Part shown: positions 40,250 to 55,558 of the stretch, piece by piece | How the letters are laid out: each line of letters begins with the position of its first letter | How positions within the stretch are numbered: position 1 is the stretch's first letter | Assembly (NCBI GenBank): GCA_964491475.1 | Contig: CAZBFO010000001.1 | Coordinates: forward strand, 110,720 to 174,719 | Origin: an uncultured Gammaproteobacteria bacterium | Lineage (GTDB): Bacteria > Patescibacteriota > Patescibacteriia > SG8-24 | Length of the DNA: 64,000 nt | Direction of reading: 5' to 3' | Made by a program: the position numbers and the translations under genes | The notes under the pieces: model-generated | Seen by the model: the letters and a program-made list of their open reading frames with translations, nothing else | Told to the model about the DNA's origin: nothing | Databases searched by the model: none

Positions 40250-40296
40250 GAAATGGCCTTTTGGGCCGTTCGCTTACTCCTAAATCGTTCATCGGT

Positions 40297-40722
40297 ATGA
40301 TGAAGAAAATGTGCAACGTTCATAAGGTCGCCTGGTGCCTGCTGCTGATCGGCGGCCTCAACTGGCTCCTCGTCGGCATCTTCCAGACTGATCTCTTCGC
40401 CATGCTCGGCCTCGGCGGCGGCTTGGTCGCCCGTGCGGTGTATGTCCTCGTCGGTCTCTCGGCGGTCAGCATGCTCGGCATCAAGAAATGCTGCATGAAA
40501 GACAGCTGCACCTGCGGCGAGAAGGGCTGCGAGGAGTGCGGACCGATGAACAAGGAGAAGGCCATGGCGATGATGAAGCCGTGCGCCTGCGGTTCGGGCA
40601 AGCCGGGCTGGCAGTGCTGCATGAAGGGCGAAGCCGAGAAGATGAAGGGCATGCCCTGCTTCTGCGGTTCGGGCAAGAAGGTCGAGGACTGCTGCATGAA
40701 GAGCCCCGAGACGCACCAATAA
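40297..40722 (+). CDS. DUF378 membrane protein fused to Cys-rich metallothionein-like C-terminal domain
   Basis: HKVAWCLLLIGGLNWLLVGIF...LVGLSAV (DUF378), then KKCCMKDSCTCGEKGCEECGP...KPCACGSGKPGWQCCMKGE...MPCFCGSGKKVEDCCMK (16 Cys in about 75 aa). A TTG at 40261 is possible. Confidence 0.65.
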   Translation: MMKKMCNVHKVAWCLLLIGGLNWLLVGIFQTDLFAMLGLGGGLVARAVYVLVGLSAVSMLGIKKCCMKDSCTCGEKGCEECGPMNKEKAMAMMKPCACGSGKPGWQCCMKGEAEKMKGMPCFCGSGKKVEDCCMKSPETHQ

Positions 40723-43119: not shown

Positions 43120-43557
43120 GTGCTAAAAGTCCCCCAAAAAGCCGACCATGCCCTGCTGCTGATGCGCCATCTGGCCGTCAGGCACGCCGCCAAACAGCCG
43201 CTGTCCCTCGAGGACGTGGCCAAGGCCGAAGGCATCTCCCAGGGATACCTCGAAGAGGTGGCCCGGCTTTTGCGTTCAGCCAAGCTGGTCGAGGGGCGCC
43301 GCGGCATCGGCGGCGGCTATGTGCTTTCGCGCGATCCTCAAGACGTCACCGTGGCCGACGTGGTCACGGCCATCGAAGGCCCCAAGTGGACCGCAGAATG
43401 CCTCGGCGAATCCAAGCGCCCGCGCGTTGCCGCGCACGACGTCCTGTGGCGCAAAGTGCAGGGCCAGGTGATGACCATGCTTCGCGGCATGACCATTGCC
43501 GACGTCGCCGAGGAAGCCGCCGCCCAGGCCAAGCGCGCCGAGACGCTGACCAAGTAA
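43120..43557 (+). CDS. Rrf2 family transcriptional regulator (IscR/SufR-like)
   Basis: GTG start. N-terminal wHTH (ADHALLLMRHLA...LSLEDVAKAEGISQGYLEEVARLLRSAKLVEGRRGIGGGY). Immediately upstream of sufB. Confidence 0.85.
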   Translation: MLKVPQKADHALLLMRHLAVRHAAKQPLSLEDVAKAEGISQGYLEEVARLLRSAKLVEGRRGIGGGYVLSRDPQDVTVADVVTAIEGPKWTAECLGESKRPRVAAHDVLWRKVQGQVMTMLRGMTIADVAEEAAAQAKRAETLTK

Positions 43558-43558
43558 T

Positions 43559-44956
43559 ATGGAAACGACTCTCGATCCCATCCGCGCGGTCTACGACGAC
43601 CACTCCAGCGCGAAAGTGAAGTACGCCGCGCCCGAAGGCCTCTCCGAGGAGATCGTGCGCGAGATTTCGCGTCAGAAAAACGAACCGGACTGGATGCTGG
43701 AGAAGCGCCTGCGCGGCCTTGAGCTGTTCCTGCAGACCCCGATGCCGTCATGGGGCCCGTCTTTGGAAAATCTCGACCTCAACAAAATCGTCTACTACGT
43801 CCGCCCCGACGCCAAGGAATCCAAGACGTGGGATGAGGTGCCGGCCGACATCCGCGCCACTTTTGAAAAGCTGGGCATCCCCGAAGCCGAACGCAACTCG
43901 CTCTCCGGCGTCGGCGCGCAGTTCGATTCCGACGTGGTCTACCACAGCCTCAAGAAGGAGTGGGAGGAGAAGGGCGTGATTTTCGAGAACATGGACGTGG
44001 CCGTGCACCAGTATCCGGAGCTGGTGAAGAAGTACTTCATGACCGATTGCATCCCGGTGTCGGATCACAAGTTCATCATGCTCCACGCTGCCGTCTGGAG
44101 CGGGGGAACGTTCATCTACGTGCCGCCCGGCGTGAAGGTCAACGTGCCGCTGCAAGCGTACTTCCGCATGAACCAAGAAAAGGGCGGACAGTTCGAGCAC
44201 ACTTTGATTATCGTCGATGAAGGCGCGTCAGTTGAATACATCGAGGGCTGCAGCGCGCCGCGGTTCGCCGCCAGCGCTTTGCACGCCGGTTGCGTGGAAC
44301 TGCACGTCAAGAAAAACGCGCGCATCAAGTATTCCTCGATCGAGAACTGGAGCAAGAACACGTTCAACTTGAACACCAAGCGCGCGGTTGTCGAGGCGCA
44401 CGGCACCGTCGAATGGCTCAACGGCAACATGGGCTCGGGCACGACCATGCTGTACCCGTGCAGCGTGTTGCGCGGAGAGGGCGCGCATTCGGAATCGCTC
44501 GGCGTGGCCTTCGCCGGTCCCGGACAAAACCAGGACACCGGTTCCAAGGTGATTCACGCGGCGCCGCACACCACTTCGGTCATCCGCGCCAAGTCCATCA
44601 GCAAGGACGGCGGCATCTCGACCTATCGCGGCCTGGTACGCGTGACGGCTGCCGCCAAGGAGACGGCTTCTTCCGTGAACTGCGACGCGCTGCTGATGGG
44701 TGACGGGTCGGTCTCGAACACCTATCCGTTCATGCGCGTGGACACCTCCGCCGTGGACGTGGCGCACGAGGCGACCGTGGGGCGCATCGGCGAAGAGGAA
44801 ATCTTCTACCTGATGTCGCGCGGACTGTCCGAGGAGAAGGCGCTAAAGATGATCGTCAGCGGATTCATCGAGCCGGTGACGAAACGGCTGCCTCTGGAGT
44901 ATGCGGTGGAGCTCAACAAACTTATTGAGTTGGAGATGACGGGGTCGGTGGGATAA
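43559..44956 (+). CDS. sufB: Fe-S cluster assembly protein SufB
   Basis: 465 aa, conserved SufB C-terminal beta-helix region (GRIGEEEIFYLMSRGLSEEKA). Confidence 0.9.
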   Translation: METTLDPIRAVYDDHSSAKVKYAAPEGLSEEIVREISRQKNEPDWMLEKRLRGLELFLQTPMPSWGPSLENLDLNKIVYYVRPDAKESKTWDEVPADIRATFEKLGIPEAERNSLSGVGAQFDSDVVYHSLKKEWEEKGVIFENMDVAVHQYPELVKKYFMTDCIPVSDHKFIMLHAAVWSGGTFIYVPPGVKVNVPLQAYFRMNQEKGGQFEHTLIIVDEGASVEYIEGCSAPRFAASALHAGCVELHVKKNARIKYSSIENWSKNTFNLNTKRAVVEAHGTVEWLNGNMGSGTTMLYPCSVLRGEGAHSESLGVAFAGPGQNQDTGSKVIHAAPHTTSVIRAKSISKDGGISTYRGLVRVTAAAKETASSVNCDALLMGDGSVSNTYPFMRVDTSAVDVAHEATVGRIGEEEIFYLMSRGLSEEKALKMIVSGFIEPVTKRLPLEYAVELNKLIELEMTGSVG

Positions 44957-44964
44957 ACCCGTTG

Positions 44965-45110
44965 TGCGCGTGTTCTGCTCATGCGGGCCGCGGGTCCTGT
45001 CAGGGGCTCACCCCACGAGTGCTCGGTCGCCTGCGGGCGACACTGCGCGCTCGCGGGGTCCCCAGCCCCTGCCACCCGCGGTTCGCATATGGAGAGCACG
45101 CAACGCATTT
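44965..45110. repeat. palindromic intergenic repeat element, copy 1 (between sufB and sufD)
   Basis: About 90-bp core (GGGTCCTGTCAGGGGCTCACCCCACGAGTGCTCGGTCGCCTGCGGGCGACACTGCGCGCTCGCGGGGTCCCCAGCCCCTGCCACCCGCGG) is near-identical (1-2 mismatches) to the reverse complement of 53911-54000. Flanks are partially similar. Internally self-complementary. Confidence 0.8.
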
Positions 45111-46316
45111 ATGAACGACACATTGATGGCACAACCCAAGACGCTTGAAGGCCTCCGCAAAGCGGCTGCGGCCGACTTTGCGTTGGCGCACGATGTTTCG
45201 CTCAAGTACGGGTTGAACGTGTTTTTTTCGCCGAAGACTGTTGCGATGCCGTTTGGTGATGTGGACTCTGCTGTCCGCTCGGAGATTCGGTTGCCGGAGG
45301 GATTGGCGGCTTACTCATTTGAGGAGTGCATGAATGATCCGAAGATGGCCGAGGCGGTGTTGAACGCGCTGGCGGCCAAGGACATTCGTGCCGAGAAGAT
45401 TGCGGCTTGGCATCGCAGTCAGGCGGGAGTCGGGACGGCCATCGTGGTGCCGCCGAATTTTTCTTCTGATGAGCCGATTCGAATTGATTTGGTGCTTCGA
45501 GATGCGCGACGCGTAGAGAATGTGTTGATCGTGGCATGCGAAGGCGCGCGCGTGACCGTGGTGGAGCATCTTCGTTCAGAGGCTATGCCGGGAAGCGCGG
45601 CAGACGACGCCGCCTCCGCTATAAAGAATGACGAGGTGAAACTTCGCAGCGCAATCACAGACATCATCGTGCATCCCAACGCCAAGGTCACGCACATCTC
45701 GCTGCAGGATTTTGCCGAGAACGTCACCGACCTCTCGCTCAAGCGCGCCAAAGTGCAACGCGACGCTTCCATGACTTGGATCGAGTGCGTCTTTGGCGGC
45801 GGGTTCAGCCAGTCGCTGGTCAGCACCGAACTGTTGGAGGAAGGCGCGTCGACCGGATCGAAGACGCAGTTCTTCGGTCGCGCCTCGCAGAAGTTCGATC
45901 TGTATCAGCACGTTCGCCACGCGGCTTCGCACACGCACTCCGAACTCCGCACTCGCGGCGCGCTGATGGATACGGCCAAGACCATTTATCGAGGCCTGGT
46001 TCGTATCGAGAAGGGGACCAAGGGCTGCATCGGCCATCAGAAGGAAGACACCTTGCTTCTCGGCGAGAAGGCCGAGATCGATGCCGTGCCCAATCTCGAA
46101 ATCGAATCCGAGGACGTCCGCTGCGGCCATTCCGCCTCGGTCGGGCGCATCGACAAGGACAAGCTGTTCTATCTGATGTCGCGCGGGCTCGATGAAGGAG
46201 CGGCACGCAAGTTCTTGGTCGAAGGCTTCTTTGCGCCTATCGTCAACGAGATGCGCGCGGCCGGCCTTGAAGACCGCGTGCAGTGCATCATCGACGAACG
46301 TATCGCGCCGTTGTAG
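45111..46316 (+). CDS. sufD: Fe-S cluster assembly protein SufD
   Basis: 401 aa SufBD-family paralog following sufB. Confidence 0.85.
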   Translation: MNDTLMAQPKTLEGLRKAAAADFALAHDVSLKYGLNVFFSPKTVAMPFGDVDSAVRSEIRLPEGLAAYSFEECMNDPKMAEAVLNALAAKDIRAEKIAAWHRSQAGVGTAIVVPPNFSSDEPIRIDLVLRDARRVENVLIVACEGARVTVVEHLRSEAMPGSAADDAASAIKNDEVKLRSAITDIIVHPNAKVTHISLQDFAENVTDLSLKRAKVQRDASMTWIECVFGGGFSQSLVSTELLEEGASTGSKTQFFGRASQKFDLYQHVRHAASHTHSELRTRGALMDTAKTIYRGLVRIEKGTKGCIGHQKEDTLLLGEKAEIDAVPNLEIESEDVRCGHSASVGRIDKDKLFYLMSRGLDEGAARKFLVEGFFAPIVNEMRAAGLEDRVQCIIDERIAPL

Positions 46317-46342
46317 GTGTCGAGAAGAAACATGACACGCTT

Positions 46343-47575
46343 ATGAAAGACACGCTCGACGTCGCAAACCTCCGCAAGGACTTTCCGATGCTGTCGCAGA
46401 ACGACGGCAAGCGTTTTGCGTACCTCGACAGCGCCTCGTCTTCCCTGACGCCCGCACCAGTGCTGGCGGCCATGGACGACTACTACCGCACCTACCGCGC
46501 CAACGTGCATCGCGGCATGTACAAGATCAGCGAGAAGGCCACCGAGCGGTACGAGGAAGTCCGCCGCAAGATCGCCGACCTCATCCGTGCCGACGAGAAC
46601 GAAATCGTCTTCACCCGCGGCACCACCGAAGGGATCAACATGGTGGCGCACTCGCTCGCCAAGCGGCTCGGCAGCGGTGACGAAGCGGTGCTGACCGTGA
46701 TGGAGCATCACGCCAATCTGGTTCCGTGGCAGCAGTACGCCAAGGAATACGGCTTTGCGTTGCGCTTCATTCCGCTCACAGCCGACTACCAACTCGACAC
46801 GGAGGCGGCGCAAAGGATGATCACTCCGGCAACGAAGGTCGTCGCGGTCACCTACGCCTCGAACGTGCTGGGCACGATCGTTCCCGTCGCAAAAATTGCC
46901 GCTCTTGCTCGTGCGGTCGGCGCAACCGTCGTCATCGACGCAGCGCAAGCCGCCGGCCACGCGCAAATCGACGTCCGCAAATGGGACTGCGACTTCCTGG
47001 CGTTCTCCGGACACAAGATGTTCGGCCCCACCGGCACCGGCGTGCTCTACGGAAAGAAGGCCGCTCTCGAAAAACTGACGCCGATGCAGTACGGCGGCGA
47101 CATGATCAAGGAAGTGCGCTTCGAGGACGCCACTTGGAACGAGGTGCCGTGGAAATTTGAGGCGGGTACGCCGAACATCGCAGGGGTTATCGGACTTGGT
47201 ACTGCAGCCGATTACGTTCGTGCCATCGGCGTCGACATGATTGGCACGCACGAAACTGCGTTGGCCAAAGATGCCGTCGCCAAACTCACGGCCGTTCCGG
47301 GCGTTCGAATCATCGGTCCCGGAGCGGACGCGGAACGCACGGGCGTGGTCTCCTTTGACGTCGAAGGCATTCACCCGCACGACGTCGCCACCATTCTTGA
47401 TGCCGAGGGCGTCTGCGTGCGCGGCGGCCATCACTGCGCCATGCCGTTGCTGCAGTCGCTCAAGCTGGTCAACGGCACCACGCGTGCCAGCTTCGGGGCA
47501 TACAGCACCGCCGAAGACGTCGGCGCGCTCGTGGCAGGCATCATCAAGGCGCGCAAAATCTTCAAACTCGCCTGA
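46343..47575 (+). CDS. sufS: cysteine desulfurase SufS (class V aminotransferase)
   Basis: PLP-lysine SGHKMFGPTG; RGGHHCAMP active-site Cys loop; 410 aa. Confidence 0.9.
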   Translation: MKDTLDVANLRKDFPMLSQNDGKRFAYLDSASSSLTPAPVLAAMDDYYRTYRANVHRGMYKISEKATERYEEVRRKIADLIRADENEIVFTRGTTEGINMVAHSLAKRLGSGDEAVLTVMEHHANLVPWQQYAKEYGFALRFIPLTADYQLDTEAAQRMITPATKVVAVTYASNVLGTIVPVAKIAALARAVGATVVIDAAQAAGHAQIDVRKWDCDFLAFSGHKMFGPTGTGVLYGKKAALEKLTPMQYGGDMIKEVRFEDATWNEVPWKFEAGTPNIAGVIGLGTAADYVRAIGVDMIGTHETALAKDAVAKLTAVPGVRIIGPGADAERTGVVSFDVEGIHPHDVATILDAEGVCVRGGHHCAMPLLQSLKLVNGTTRASFGAYSTAEDVGALVAGIIKARKIFKLA

Positions 47576-47576
47576 T

Positions 47577-47999
47577 ATGGAACTCTACATTGACTCCAGC
47601 GACGACCTCATCGGCGACGAGCAGATGTACATGGAGAACATCCTCGACCACTCCAAGCATCCGCACAACGCCGGCACCATCCCAAACGCCACCTTCATGC
47701 ACCAGGAGGTCAACACCTCCTGCGGCGACGCCATCTCCATCTACGTGAAGCTGGCCGACGGCAAAGTGACCGACGTGAAGTTCGACGGTCACGGTTGCGC
47801 CATCAGCCAGGCAAGCGTGTCGATGCTCACCGACTTCGTGAAAGGCAAGACGGTCGCGGAACTGCAGGCGCTGACCAAGGAAGACATCTTCGGCCTGCTG
47901 GGAATCACTGTCGGCATGACGCGTCTCCGCTGCGCGTTGCTCGGACTCAAGACGTTGGAAATCGGACTCGCGGAACACCTGAAGGACTCTGGCACATAA
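47577..47999 (+). CDS. sufU: SUF-system Fe-S scaffold SufU/IscU-like (NifU family)
   Basis: Conserved Cys in SCGD, GHGCAIS, RLRCALL motifs. Confidence 0.85.
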   Translation: MELYIDSSDDLIGDEQMYMENILDHSKHPHNAGTIPNATFMHQEVNTSCGDAISIYVKLADGKVTDVKFDGHGCAISQASVSMLTDFVKGKTVAELQALTKEDIFGLLGITVGMTRLRCALLGLKTLEIGLAEHLKDSGT

Positions 48000-48011
48000 C
48001 TCTCCATCCCT

Positions 48012-48737
48012 ATGTCACTCAAAATCGCGAAACTCCACGTCTCCCGCGAGGGCAAGGAAATCGTCAAAGGCGTGTCGCTCTCCGTTGCGCCCGGCGAAGT
48101 GCACGCGCTGATGGGACAGAACGGCTCCGGCAAATCGTCACTGGCCAACGCGCTGATGGGCCATCCCAAGTACGCCATCACCGACGGCACCATCAGCATC
48201 GACGACGAGGGCCTGACAGCGCTCAAACCGAACGAGCGCGCCGCCAAGGGCCTGTTCCTGTCGATGCAGCATCCGCCCGAGGTCTCCGGCGTGACCGTGG
48301 CGCACTTCCTCCGCGTCATCACCACCACCGCGCGCCGCGAACCGCTCTCGGTTGCCGATTTCCGCAAGCTGCTGATGGAAAAGATGGCCGACCTCAAGAT
48401 CGACGGGGCCTTCATGCACCGCGGCCTCAACGAAGGCTTCTCCGGCGGCGAAAAGAAGCGCATGGAAATCCTGCAGCTGGCCCTGCTTGCGCCGAAATAT
48501 GCCATACTGGACGAGACCGACTCCGGCCTGGACGTCGACGCGCTCAAGATCGTCAGCGACGGCGTGAAGAAGCTGCGCGAGCAGGGGATGGGCGTGCTGC
48601 TCATCACTCACCACACTCGCATCTTGCAGGATTTGGTTCCTGACAAGGTCCACGTACTCAAGGACGGCCTAATCGTGGCCGAGGGCGGCTCGGAACTGGC
48701 CTCGGAAATCGAAAAGGAAGGATTCACCAAGTGGTAA
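48012..48737 (+). CDS. sufC: Fe-S cluster assembly ATPase SufC
   Basis: Walker A GQNGSGKS, signature FSGGEKKR, Walker B ILDETDSGLD. Confidence 0.9.
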   Translation: MSLKIAKLHVSREGKEIVKGVSLSVAPGEVHALMGQNGSGKSSLANALMGHPKYAITDGTISIDDEGLTALKPNERAAKGLFLSMQHPPEVSGVTVAHFLRVITTTARREPLSVADFRKLLMEKMADLKIDGAFMHRGLNEGFSGGEKKRMEILQLALLAPKYAILDETDSGLDVDALKIVSDGVKKLREQGMGVLLITHHTRILQDLVPDKVHVLKDGLIVAEGGSELASEIEKEGFTKW

Positions 48738-48747
48738 ACCGACACTT

Positions 48748-49038
48748 ATGGTCATCAAGGACGAAGTCATCGAAGTGCTGAAGAACACACTCGACCCCGA
48801 ACTCGGCATCGACCTGTACACTCTCGGGCTTATTTACGATGTCGACATGGACGAGAAGAACCAGAAGCTGGTCATCAAGATGACCTTCACCACGCCGCTG
48901 TGCCCGTACGGCCCGCAGATGGTCGGCGAACTCAAGAGCAAGTTCCGCGCGCTGGGCCTCGACGACGTCAAAGTGGACGTGGTGTTCGACCCGCCATGGG
49001 AACCCAGCGAGGAAGTCCGCGCGATGTTGGGGGTGTAA
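48748..49038 (+). CDS. sufT: SufT/DUF59 (MIP18 family) Fe-S assembly protein
   Basis: 96 aa with the TPLCP motif of DUF59. Confidence 0.8.
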   Translation: MVIKDEVIEVLKNTLDPELGIDLYTLGLIYDVDMDEKNQKLVIKMTFTTPLCPYGPQMVGELKSKFRALGLDDVKVDVVFDPPWEPSEEVRAMLGV

Positions 49039-49139: not shown

Positions 49140-49520
49140 ATGCGAAACGAAGAGAAAATCATCGGGATGATTTCGGACTTGGGCAATCAGGTGAACCGCA
49201 GGTTCGACGCGCTCGAAGCCAAAGTCACCGGAATGAACGCGGATATCGGCGATCTGAAAACTGATGTTGCTAGCCTGAAGTCGGACGTCGCAGTGCTCAA
49301 ATCCGACGTCGCAGTGCTCAAATCCGACGTCGCAGTGCTCAAGTCAGACAATGCCGATCTGAAAGGCTCCCAAGCTGCCATGACCGAAGGCATCTCGCAT
49401 CTCTACGACCGCATGGACTCACTCGAGACGTACGTGCGCGAAAAGGTCGCCACCAAAGACGACCTCGCCGCCCACGGCTTCCGCATCACCAGGCTCGAAC
49501 GGCTTCAGGGCATAGCCTGA
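49140..49520 (+). CDS. coiled-coil protein with tandem heptad repeats (SDVAVLK x3 plus degenerate flanking copies)
   Basis: 126 aa. Perfect 21-nt tandem repeats encode KSDVAVL three times, flanked by TDVASLK and SDNADLK. Confidence 0.55.
   Translation: MRNEEKIIGMISDLGNQVNRRFDALEAKVTGMNADIGDLKTDVASLKSDVAVLKSDVAVLKSDVAVLKSDNADLKGSQAAMTEGISHLYDRMDSLETYVREKVATKDDLAAHGFRITRLERLQGIA
49260..49364 (+). repeat. 21-bp tandem repeat (about 5 units, 3 perfect) inside the CDS
   Basis: gtcgcagtgctcaaatccgac repeated three times exactly, with degenerate flanking units. Confidence 0.8.
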
Positions 49521-53197: not shown

Positions 53198-53872
53198 ATG
53201 GGAACGCTCTACATCATCGCCACGCCCATCGGCAACCTGGAAGATGCCACCTTCCGCAGCATTGAGACGCTCAAAAAGCTCGATGCGCTTTTTTGCGAAG
53301 ACACGCGCGTGACCGGCCGCCTGCTTGAGCGCTACGGCATTCACGTCCCGATGCAGTCGTACCGCGAGGACAGCCACGGCCTGAAGTTGCCGAAGATGTT
53401 GGAACTGCTCCGCGCTGATAAAACCGTCGGCCTCGTTTCCGACGCCGGCACGCCGACCATCGCCGATCCCGGTTTCCGCATGGTGCGCGACGTGCTCCAA
53501 GCCGAACCGGAAACGACCATCATCCCGATCGCGGGTGTCTCTGCCGTGACCGCCGCGCTCTCGATTGCAGGCTTCTCCGCCGACCAGTTCACCTTCATGG
53601 GTTTTCCTCCGCACAAGAAGGGCCGCAACGGCTTCTTCAAAGAAGCGCTGGATCAGTCTCGCACCGTCGTCCTGTACGAATCTACCCACCGTATCGAAAA
53701 AGCGCTCGAATCCATCAACGAGCTCGCTCCCGAGAGAAAGCTGGTAGTATGCAGGGAGCTCACCAAGATGTTCGAGACGACCTATCGCGGTATCGCTGAG
53801 GAAATCAGCACGCAACTTTCAGCCACCAGCAGTAAGGGGGAGTTCGTCATCGTAATAGAAGGCAAACCTTAA
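53198..53872 (+). CDS. rsmI: 16S rRNA (cytidine1402-2'-O)-methyltransferase RsmI
   Basis: LYIIATPIGNLEDAT...FCEDTR tetrapyrrole-methylase-fold motifs. Confidence 0.9.
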   Translation: MGTLYIIATPIGNLEDATFRSIETLKKLDALFCEDTRVTGRLLERYGIHVPMQSYREDSHGLKLPKMLELLRADKTVGLVSDAGTPTIADPGFRMVRDVLQAEPETTIIPIAGVSAVTAALSIAGFSADQFTFMGFPPHKKGRNGFFKEALDQSRTVVLYESTHRIEKALESINELAPERKLVVCRELTKMFETTYRGIAEEISTQLSATSSKGEFVIVIEGKP

Positions 53873-53884
53873 ACAAGCCTCTGG

Positions 53885-54035
53885 CGAAGTCGCGGATGCA
53901 CTCATTGCGTCACCGCGGGTGGCAGGGGCTGGGGACCCCGCGAGCGCGCAGCGTCGCCCGCAGGCGACCGAGCACTCGTGGGGTGAGCCCCTGACACCCG
54001 CGGCACGCATATATACTCCACGCACACTCCGACAA
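53885..54035. repeat. palindromic intergenic repeat element, copy 2 (between rsmI and metG), inverted relative to copy 1
   Basis: 53911-54000 is the reverse complement of 44991-45080 with 1-2 mismatches. Confidence 0.8.
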
Positions 54036-54043
54036 GCACTTCT

Positions 54044-55558
54044 ATGAAAACCTACTACATCACCACCACACTCCCATACGTTAACGCCGACCCCCACATC
54101 GGCTTCGCTTTGGAAATCATCCAAGCTGATGCGCTCGCACGTTGGCACCGCCTCCACGGCGAAGAGGTCGTGTTCAACACCGGCACCGACGAGCACGGCC
54201 AGAAGATCTACAAGAACGCCATGGAAGCCGGCATGGAACCGAAGGCCTACTGCGACATGTACGCCGCCAAGTTCCACGGCCTCAAGGATGCGCTCAACCT
54301 TTCCTACACCAACTTCATCCGCACCACCGACGATTATCACGTCGCTGCCGCCCAAGAATTTTGGAAGCGCTGCGCCGCCAACGGCGACATCTACAAGGCG
54401 CGCTACCAGACCAAGTACTGCATCGGTTGCGAATTGGTCAAGACCGATTCCGAACTGGACCACGGCAAGTGCCCGATCCACCCGAAGCTGGAAGTGGAAC
54501 TTCGCGACGAAGAAAACTATTTCTTCAAATGGTCCAACTACGGCCAGGCGTTGCTTGATCTGTACTCGGCTCGCCCTGACTTCGTCGTGCCGTCCGGTCG
54601 CCTGAACGAGATCAACTCGTTCGTCCGCGGCGGGTTGCAGGACTTCAGCATCTCGCGCCTTAAGTCAGCGATGCCTTGGGGCATTCCGGTGCCGGGCGAC
54701 GACGAACACGTCATGTACGTGTGGTTCGACGCGTTAGTGAACTATATTTCGACCATCGGCTGGCCGATCAACATGGGCAAGTTCGAGGAGTTCTGGCCGG
54801 GCGTGCAGACTGCGGGCAAGGACAACCTCCGCCAGCAGTCGGCCATGTGGCAGGCCATGCTGATGTCGGCCAAGCTGCCGCCGTCCCAGCAGATATTCAT
54901 TCACGGCTTCATCACCGCCGAGGGGCAAAAGATGTCCAAGTCCACCGGCAACGTCATCAATCCCTACGACCTCGTGACGCAGTACGGCACCGACGCCGTG
55001 CGCTACTTCCTGATGGGCGGCATGCCTTCGTACGAGGACGGCGACTTCTCCAAAAAGCTGTTCGAAGAGAACTACACCTCGAAACTGGTGAATGGCGTCG
55101 GCAACTTGGCCGCACGCACCGCCACCATGGTCGAGAAGTATTGCGAGGGCAAAGTTCCCGCCGAACAGCCTGACCGCTTCGACACCTCCGCCTTCTGGAA
55201 GGACTACTCCGCTGCCCTCGATGCCTTCCGCTTCGACGAAGCCGCCCGCGTGTTGGAGAAGTACGTCACCGCGGTTAACCAAGCCATCGACCAGGAAGCG
55301 CCGTTCAAGAAGGCCAAGGAAGGCATCGACGTGTCACCGTTCATGTACCAGCTCGCCGAGGCCCAGCGCCACATCGGCATAGCCTTACTGCCGGTAATTC
55401 CGGCTGCCGCCACCCATATTCTTGGCCAAATTTCGGTCCGCCCCGAGGATGTCCTGCTGCCGCGCGATGCGCGGTGGGGGAAGCTGGTTCCGGGGACGAC
55501 GGTGGTAAAAAGCCCGATTTTGTTCCCACGCCTTCCTGCCGTCGACGCGTCCGCTTAA
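54044..55558 (+). CDS. metG: methionine--tRNA ligase
   Basis: HIGH-class motif (PYVNADPHIGF), KMSKS, zinc knuckle CIGC...CPIH. Confidence 0.9.
   Translation: MKTYYITTTLPYVNADPHIGFALEIIQADALARWHRLHGEEVVFNTGTDEHGQKIYKNAMEAGMEPKAYCDMYAAKFHGLKDALNLSYTNFIRTTDDYHVAAAQEFWKRCAANGDIYKARYQTKYCIGCELVKTDSELDHGKCPIHPKLEVELRDEENYFFKWSNYGQALLDLYSARPDFVVPSGRLNEINSFVRGGLQDFSISRLKSAMPWGIPVPGDDEHVMYVWFDALVNYISTIGWPINMGKFEEFWPGVQTAGKDNLRQQSAMWQAMLMSAKLPPSQQIFIHGFITAEGQKMSKSTGNVINPYDLVTQYGTDAVRYFLMGGMPSYEDGDFSKKLFEENYTSKLVNGVGNLAARTATMVEKYCEGKVPAEQPDRFDTSAFWKDYSAALDAFRFDEAARVLEKYVTAVNQAIDQEAPFKKAKEGIDVSPFMYQLAEAQRHIGIALLPVIPAAATHILGQISVRPEDVLLPRDARWGKLVPGTTVVKSPILFPRLPAVDASA

Follow-up and report, generated by a model that had tools for sequence, protein, structure and literature searches.

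The spacer between sufB and sufD in the 64-kb stretch of DNA analyzed here (the window) holds a GC-rich palindrome that, with a probability of about 0.75, is a non-coding, non-autonomous mobile element of about 118 nt, belonging to a wider family defined by the foot of its hairpin and acquired at least twice in this lineage. Both copies in the window are insertions, they belong to a family of hairpins that share a conserved, asymmetric foot, and members of this family are tolerated in spacers and in protein linkers, have no preferred orientation and include at least one that was inverted in place. Among the mobile DNAs of bacteria, few are as poorly understood as palindromic repeats.

Two copies in the window and their empty sites in relatives

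The sufB-sufD spacer (44957-45110, + strand) comprises 154 nt. An earlier note on this DNA had described a self-complementary, GC-rich element that fills this spacer (given there as 155 bp) and recurs as a near-identical reverse complement, and our analysis bears out both statements, with an 85-nt core that is 99% identical in the second copy (53912-53996). The repeat arms (44998-45082 and 53912-53996; 85 nt, 99% complementary) form the sole long repeat in the 64 kb, and a 32-mer from the arm has two exact matches in the window versus 0.00 expected. When the copies are aligned locally, the unit common to both grows to 118 nt in copy 1 and 114 nt in copy 2 (Table 1). The copies differ by one substitution and a 3-nt indel (CCT, which corresponds to a GGA bulge), and the outer arm is less conserved. 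The ends quoted in the earlier note are those of the reverse-complement reading of copy 1, which equals the + strand reading of copy 2.

Table 1. Positions in the window of the two copies, their parts and the neighboring genes
Feature	Position	Strand	Remarks
sufB	43559-44956	+	Upstream neighbor of copy 1; Pfam SUFBD_core, 2e-81
Copy 1, full unit (118 nt)	44981-45098	-	Reading of the - strand runs from A-arm to B-arm; model R1, 73.3 bits
Copy 1, B-type foot arm CCGCGGGTCCTGTCAGGGG	44988-45006	+	Bears the 3-nt bulge; reverse complement CCCCTGACAGGACCCGCGG
Copy 1, apical stem-loop GGTCGCCTGCGGGCGAC	45025-45041	+	Single A/G difference between the copies around 45041
Copy 1, A-type foot arm CCCCTGCCACCCGCGG	45066-45081	+	Reverse complement of CCGCGGGTGGCAGGGG
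Copy 1, longer outer arm TTCGCATATGGAGAGCA	45082-45098	+	Pairs with 44976-44987
sufD	45111-46316	+	Downstream neighbor of copy 1; Pfam SUFBD_core
TP_methylase gene	53198-53872	+	Upstream of copy 2; Pfam
Copy 2, full unit (114 nt)	53897-54010	+	Orientation opposite to copy 1; model R1, 66.6 bits
Copy 2, A-arm	53913-53928	+	
Copy 2, other arm	53988-54003	+	Without the GGA bulge
Methionyl-tRNA synthetase-like gene (metG)	54044-55558	+	Downstream of copy 2; Pfam

Folding, which the earlier note had proposed as a check, gave a long, stable hairpin for both copies (about −80 kcal/mol, z = −7). As RNA, each copy forms one such hairpin (−83.9 and −78.6 kcal/mol; z = −6.96, with 0 of 200 shuffles equally good), and with DNA parameters each of the four strands folded at −40 to −47 kcal/mol, with z values between −4.2 and −6.7. 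Logan contigs (SRR12313479/80) end at 45025 when approached from the sufB side and, on the side of sufD, resume at 45053; they match the window with 0 mismatches. This shows a real element, not an assembly artifact, and one that breaks short-read assembly; the breaks of these independent assemblies inside the element are compatible with its repetition. The Logan contig that starts in copy 1 ends at position 49313 of the window, within a coiled-coil ORF (49140-49520), and no repeat was detected at that position.

Copy 1 lies in a suf cluster (43120-49038) that encodes an Rrf2 regulator, SufB, SufD, SufS, a NifU_N (SufU-like) protein, a SufC-like ABC ATPase and a FeS_assembly_P protein. The ATPase gene is placed after sufU and not between sufB and sufD, and relatives have the same order. 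The start of sufD (ATG at 45111) was set by alignment with the starts in relatives, and an exact look-up of SufD read from this ATG returned no record.

Relatives were found via SufB, and three syntenic loci were compared, with SufB identities of 92%, 91%, and 86%. Their sufB-sufD spacers measure only 4, 36, and 5 nt, and the spacer between the methylase gene and metG measures 9 nt in one relative. A fuzzy search with the arms and a search with a covariance model detected no copy of the element in about 60 kb of the relatives' DNA. Since the orthologous sites in relatives are empty, both window copies are gains in this lineage, and nearly the entire length of both spacers is new DNA. Checking for target-site duplications, as the earlier note had advised, revealed none at either copy.

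Related hairpins and their common foot

A genome scan with a pattern composed of the A-arm and a short part of the other arm (only CCCCTGNCA was demanded) returned six loci (locus labels are given as L-numbers), which come from Solirubrobacterales (two copies in one metagenome-assembled genome [MAG]), Actinomycetes, Thermoleophilia, Binatia and, probably, Planctomycetota. All matches are hairpins, and their interiors differ. The full B-arm CCCCTGACAGGACCCGCGG is present in four of the seven hits, and its extension GGACCCGCGG was not part of the search pattern. A scan of metagenomes, soil metagenomes among them, with the B-arm added L018, L022, L023, L026, L033, L035, L039, and L045, which brings the family to fifteen hairpins (the two window copies and 13 from the public scans). 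The 19-mer of the B-arm (CCGCGGGTCCTGTCAGGGG) also occurs in L003, L006, L007, L018, L022, L023, L026, L033, L039, and L045. The ends of the fifteen hairpins are paired as A with B or as A with an A-like arm, never as B with B. As for copy number, two copies were counted in the 64-kb window and two in the one Solirubrobacterales MAG.

The common foot consists of a 7-bp helix (CCGCGGG/CCCGCGG), an asymmetric loop (TGG/ACAGGA) and a 6-bp helix (CAGGGG/CCCCTG), and part of its invariance stems from the searches themselves, whose patterns required one arm or the other. The loop can equivalently be drawn as two pairs plus a G.A mismatch and a GGA bulge. The copy assigned to Planctomycetota is the weakest member (38 bits), and its B-arm is degraded. 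Between the window element and the Binatia copy, the interiors share 73% identity (z = 4.8 versus shuffles), so that the kinship of these two goes beyond the foot.

As a negative control, the 16-mer of the A-arm alone was searched in viral contigs; it gave 8 hits, none with a hairpin partner, which is the level expected by chance. The 19-mer of the B-arm and the foot-pair patterns had no hits in viral contigs, and blastn of the window element and of the Solirubrobacterales copy against 72,556 plasmids returned only chance-level fragments up to E = 10. Metagenome hits in which N is G (CCCCTGGCAGGACCCGCGG) were set aside as chance, most of them being partnerless and located in apparently ordinary, probably coding sequence; yet L035 carries this base and is a real element. 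Decayed members exist as well, as exemplified by L020:300-450, where what is left of a Binatia-type element is its 3' half alone, with an intact B-arm. A related motif, GCGTTCCGGGCCCCTGACAGGACCCGCGGACCCTAGTTGCGG, was observed in five contigs from activated sludge (L017:1580-1700, L019:1-70, L036:2240-2410, L044:1930-1996, and L050:1-90). Here the B-arm motif is present but has no A-arm to pair with. It invariably lies no more than about 130 nt from the end of a contig, a position suggestive of a second family of repeats that shares the ACAGGACCCGCGG module.

A covariance model was built from 14 copies, and covariation was computed on the trimmed hairpins. The 16 pairs of the foot are almost invariant, which in part reflects ascertainment, and each of the next four pairs occurs as four different pair types. 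Cells predicted to be paired were paired in 94.5% of cases versus 85.2% in shuffles (0 of 500 as high), double-sided changes numbered 29 versus 9.7 expected (0 of 500), and the covariation score was 0.259 versus at most 0.07 with slid partners. The interior stems are lineage-specific, and their pairing is maintained by compensatory changes.

The covariance model also found a variant (L023:3163-3276, L026:9926-10039, and L039:3043-3155), in which the TGG/ACAGGA loop and the CAGGGG/CCCCTG helix are set apart by an additional helix of 5 bp (CGTCG/CGGCG). Since the variant retains the outer helix and the asymmetric loop despite the extra helix, these two make up the constant part of the foot. A gene of about 1.1 kb, which encodes a probable secreted protein without a Pfam family, is flanked at these loci by the variant on one side and the first element on the other. 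A long hairpin at L004:2949-3059 (−84.5 kcal/mol) and the element at L004:5782-5886 have the same apex on different feet; foot and apex are therefore separable, exchangeable modules.

Outer arms of about 9 and 17 to 35 nt recur in differing gene contexts in L004, L006, L022, and L035, and the true boundaries of the element therefore lie outside the foot. At these boundaries in the four loci, as at those of both window copies, there is no target-site duplication.

Placement of the copies and comparison with known repeat classes

Many copies, including both in the window, lie 9 to 40 nt past a stop codon, and the copy in L018 is situated exactly between convergent genes. The Binatia copy (L007:6925-6970) follows directly on the canonical hairpin-plus-T-run terminator of a neighboring amino-acid permease gene and, being beyond this terminator, is outside the permease transcription unit. 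Other copies reside within genes. The one in L035 is inserted in frame in the linker between the E3-binding and the catalytic domain of a 2-oxoacid dehydrogenase E2 acyltransferase, and in L006 the copy, likewise in frame, occupies the linker that joins EcfA1 to EcfA2 in a fused ATPase; the annotated EcfA protein has 572 amino acids compared to 541 to 543 in its nearest homologs, with the surplus in the linker. In L003 and L008, the copy is flanked by transmembrane-like sequence on either side within an open frame and is, judged by ORF continuity only, probably in frame; a PDB sequence search with the two host proteins gave no hits. Reading frames and orientations differ between hosts, the metG frame is interrupted by a stop in copy 2, and the number of stop-free frames (59) is close to that predicted from composition (57.6), so that selection for stop-free frames was rejected. 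Residence in genes hence reflects tolerance rather than a protein function.

Both orientations relative to the upstream gene occur, the two window copies being opposite to each other, and wobble pairs are distributed over the two strands without bias (29 versus 26). In L039, the copy is inverted in place compared with the orthologous site of L026 and L023, while the flanks have kept their orientation. The orthologous copies in L023, L026, and L039 are 93 to 100% conserved, compared to about 85 to 95% for the flanks.

A match to a known Rfam family, which the earlier note had named as grounds for giving up its reading, did not appear: no family reached the gathering threshold in the window or at the elements in L003 to L008, and the spacer searched at E ≤ 10 gave only one spurious hit to a long non-coding RNA. 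Scans for terminators and promoters found neither a U-tract terminator nor a sigma-70-like promoter at either window copy.

REP superfamilies are found in several phyla, downstream of genes and sometimes within genes, where they encode 20 to 30 residues (PMC3733652; PMC3116915); for the CGTC REPs no transposase is known (PMC3733652), and REPINs are lineage-specific and vertically inherited (bioRxiv 10.1101/2022.05.22.493013). The element is similar to REPs and REPINs in that it is a GC-rich hairpin repeat without target duplication that lies mostly downstream of genes, between unidirectional or convergent ORFs, and occasionally in genes; the two likely also have in common that they are recognized as folded DNA through unpaired bases. 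However, the arms do not form stem-loops alone (z values of half-elements lie between −2.1 and +1.8, no better than those of shuffles), there is no consistent flanking tetranucleotide (CGTC precedes copy 2 only, and GTAG is found near L022 and L004 only), and no RAYT gene was found in the window or the element loci. A head-to-head dimer of REPs was rejected because the arms do not fold alone, and a GTAG- or CGTC-tagged REP was rejected for want of a consistent tag and with stems far longer than 5 to 13 bp. Moreover, an identical foot of 16 to 19 nt is present in different phyla above unrelated interiors, whereas REPINs are confined to lineages.

With MITEs such as Correia (for which we know of no mobilizing enzyme), ERIC, and RUP, the element shares its small size, the lack of coding capacity, terminal inverted repeats, a hairpin formed by the whole element and an intergenic, co-transcribed location. 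At 118 nt and with open frames at the level of composition, it is within the limits of MITEs (under about 300 to 500 bp, non-coding), and its ends CCGCGGGTGGCAGGGG and CCGCGGGTCCTGTCAGGGG are terminal inverted repeats that form an imperfect pair. In contrast to MITEs, it has no target-site duplication, no insertion sequence was seen whose ends would mark it as the parent, and the ends differ from each other by a 3-nt indel and one mismatch, an asymmetry that is conserved across hosts. No two foot arms that could bracket a gene were found 0.2 to 4 kb apart in 450 kb of DNA. A textbook MITE was ruled out by the missing target-site duplication, and no autonomous parent was found. The earlier note had proposed a mobile or recombination-spread element of the REP/BIME or MITE kind; a spread, inserted repeat is what the empty sites and the related hairpins elsewhere support, but its assignment to REP/BIME or MITE in the strict sense did not stand. 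Bacterial MITEs are small and co-transcribed and may alter the fate of the mRNA (PMC10969869).

Rickettsial palindromic elements (RPEs), of about 100 to 150 bp, insert in frame at tolerant sites and also in spacers, and their mobilizing enzyme is not known (PMC10969869; PMC3733652). Our element resembles them as a palindrome of similar size that is found in frame in unrelated protein genes and in spacers; in-frame insertion of the RPE type was seen in L035 and L006 and not in the window copies. The hosts of the element differ from those of RPEs in being free-living, GC-rich and distributed over several phyla, and there is no conserved peptide, the peptides encoded by the element differing in frame and sequence between hosts; this distinction is drawn from the published description of RPEs.

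Integron integrases and the tyrosine transposases of the IS200/IS605 and RAYT types recognize folded single-stranded DNA via extrahelical bases (PMC3733652, PMC3116915). A folded strand with conserved extrahelical bases in its foot and a variable top, as proposed for our element, would be similar to attC sites and to the hairpins of IS200/IS605. Different from attC, the core sites RYYYAAC/GTTRRRY are absent from the ends of the element, there is no cassette context, and the flanking genes are housekeeping genes. Different from IS200/IS605, neither a transposase nor TnpB is encoded nearby, and there is one long hairpin instead of separate left-end and right-end hairpins. The foot also does not fit the GGGGWSAS motif in the terminal inverted repeats of TIR-associated tyrosine transposases (PMC3733652). 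No Pfam family of transposases or recombinases is represented among the 57 ORFs of the window or among the neighbors of related copies, and tblastn with approximate RAYT and IS608 TnpA queries gave no credible hits (one with E = 0.002 lies inside a methyltransferase gene). Since REPINs, tagged REPs, MITEs, and attC each fail at least one tested defining feature, the element was not assigned to a named family, and the best reading is a palindromic repeat of the kind represented by REP/REPIN, MITE, and RPE that makes up a new family.

Proposed mobilization, rival explanations and the suf operon

How could such an element move? We propose that it does so as a folded single strand, whose foot and extrahelical bases would be recognized by an enzyme that acts in trans and is encoded elsewhere; our leading guess is a transposase of the HUH/Y1 type. 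Movement in this way would leave no target duplication. Folded-strand mobilization is the most economical model because it accommodates both the conserved extrahelical bases of the foot and the lack of target duplications. That feet are identical across phyla while the tops above them are unrelated may be the outcome of horizontal spread or of a strong constraint imposed by the enzyme. A more far-reaching idea, which we offer only tentatively, is that the foot (CCGCGGG-TGG ... ACAGGA-CCCGCGG) could be the handle of a hairpin-specific enzyme and could define a third superfamily of "tagged palindromes" beside the GTAG and CGTC REPs, one that would cross phyla horizontally, graft onto or accept local hairpin tops, flip in place and colonize linkers as readily as spacers.

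A hairpin that serves the host is the most probable of the rivals, but we consider it unlikely. Whatever its origin, the element might act as RNA in the suf operon, as a barrier to 3'-exonucleases, a site for RNase processing or an attenuator that tunes the ratio of SufB to SufD. REP/BIME elements stabilize, process, or attenuate mRNA in some operons of Escherichia coli, and a very stable fold within a polycistronic operon, the typical position of members shortly past stop codons (in one case exactly between convergent genes) and the higher conservation of the L023, L026, and L039 copies relative to their flanks are all in line with such a role. However, relatives operate their suf operon without the element, there is no U-tract, copy 2 is oppositely oriented in an unrelated spacer and other copies are found within coding regions; furthermore, SufB and SufD are required in equal amounts in the SufBC2D complex. 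The occurrence of both orientations relative to the flanking transcription, together with the even distribution of wobble pairs, the inversion in place, the in-frame residence in genes and the absence of any neighboring gene in common, speak against a strand-specific structured RNA or cis-regulatory RNA whose internal loop would bind a protein or ligand. The invariant asymmetric loop, the covarying stems and the conservation across phyla would suit such an RNA, but no Rfam family was matched either at the gathering threshold or at E ≤ 10, and we regard this explanation, which the earlier note had offered as a structured RNA family and for which we see no support, as very improbable.

Inversion in place would also suit a site for site-specific recombination, attC-like or an invertible segment, whose folded strand a tyrosine or serine recombinase would recognize and act on. 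The conserved extrahelical bases below a variable top, as in attC, and the missing target duplication agree with this, but with neither attC core sites nor cassette arrays, and with no integrase or invertase gene in the window or beside other copies, a recombination site is, in our view, highly unlikely. Finally, the element could be a translated module that is under selection as a peptide, as proposed for RPEs. Indeed, an in-frame GTG at 44964 opens a frame that runs through copy 1 into sufD and would add an N-terminal extension of 49 residues, and in-frame copies exist in L006 and L035, with L003 and L008 as probable further cases. Yet a stop-free stretch of 147 nt ahead of sufD has a probability of P = 0.42 from composition alone, open frames in the family as a whole are likewise at the level of composition, frames and orientations differ among hosts, the metG frame of copy 2 contains a stop, and no match at E ≤ 1 emerged when the window element was translated in six frames and searched against 5.8 billion proteins, so that we attach hardly any weight to a translated module.

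For the mobile element that we favor, any effect on the host would be a side effect and not its purpose. The suf transcript would read through copy 1 as a very stable hairpin, which may break the translational coupling of sufB and sufD in relatives, two of which have gaps of 4 to 5 nt. sufD would then be left with only a distant GGAGAG (45091-45096), which is located in the outer arm of copy 1, 14 nt ahead of the ATG, and is partly paired in the outer stem. The hairpin may protect the upstream mRNA or dampen the expression of sufD, and an effect on suf mRNA stability or sufD translation is plausible. With a hairpin of about −84 kcal/mol now set between two suf genes whose translation is coupled in relatives, the locus is a natural experiment on what an operon tolerates. 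Beyond this locus, a short recognition module with conserved asymmetry that is common to Actinomycetota, Binatia, and the lineage of the window, while the interiors above it can vary freely, is a bait in the search for the enzyme. Insertions of the element also call for care in annotation, as they inflate predicted proteins (the 572-residue EcfA fusion and, possibly, a false SufD N terminus of 49 residues), and they break short-read assemblies.

With regard to its origin, the 64-kb window has a GC content of 62% and encodes aconitase, isocitrate dehydrogenase and subunit a of the ATP synthase, as well as two ECF sigma factors and an Fe/Mn superoxide dismutase. The nearest named relatives of its SufB are labeled Parcubacteria/Patescibacteria, which is an odd fit with this gene content, and either these labels or the affiliation of the window is doubtful. 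Another type of repetition was observed at positions 40578-40704, where two direct repeats of 52 nt, 79% identical and 75 nt apart, lie inside the 3' end of a DUF378 gene (40261-40722); the repeat unit is cysteine-rich in the coding frame.
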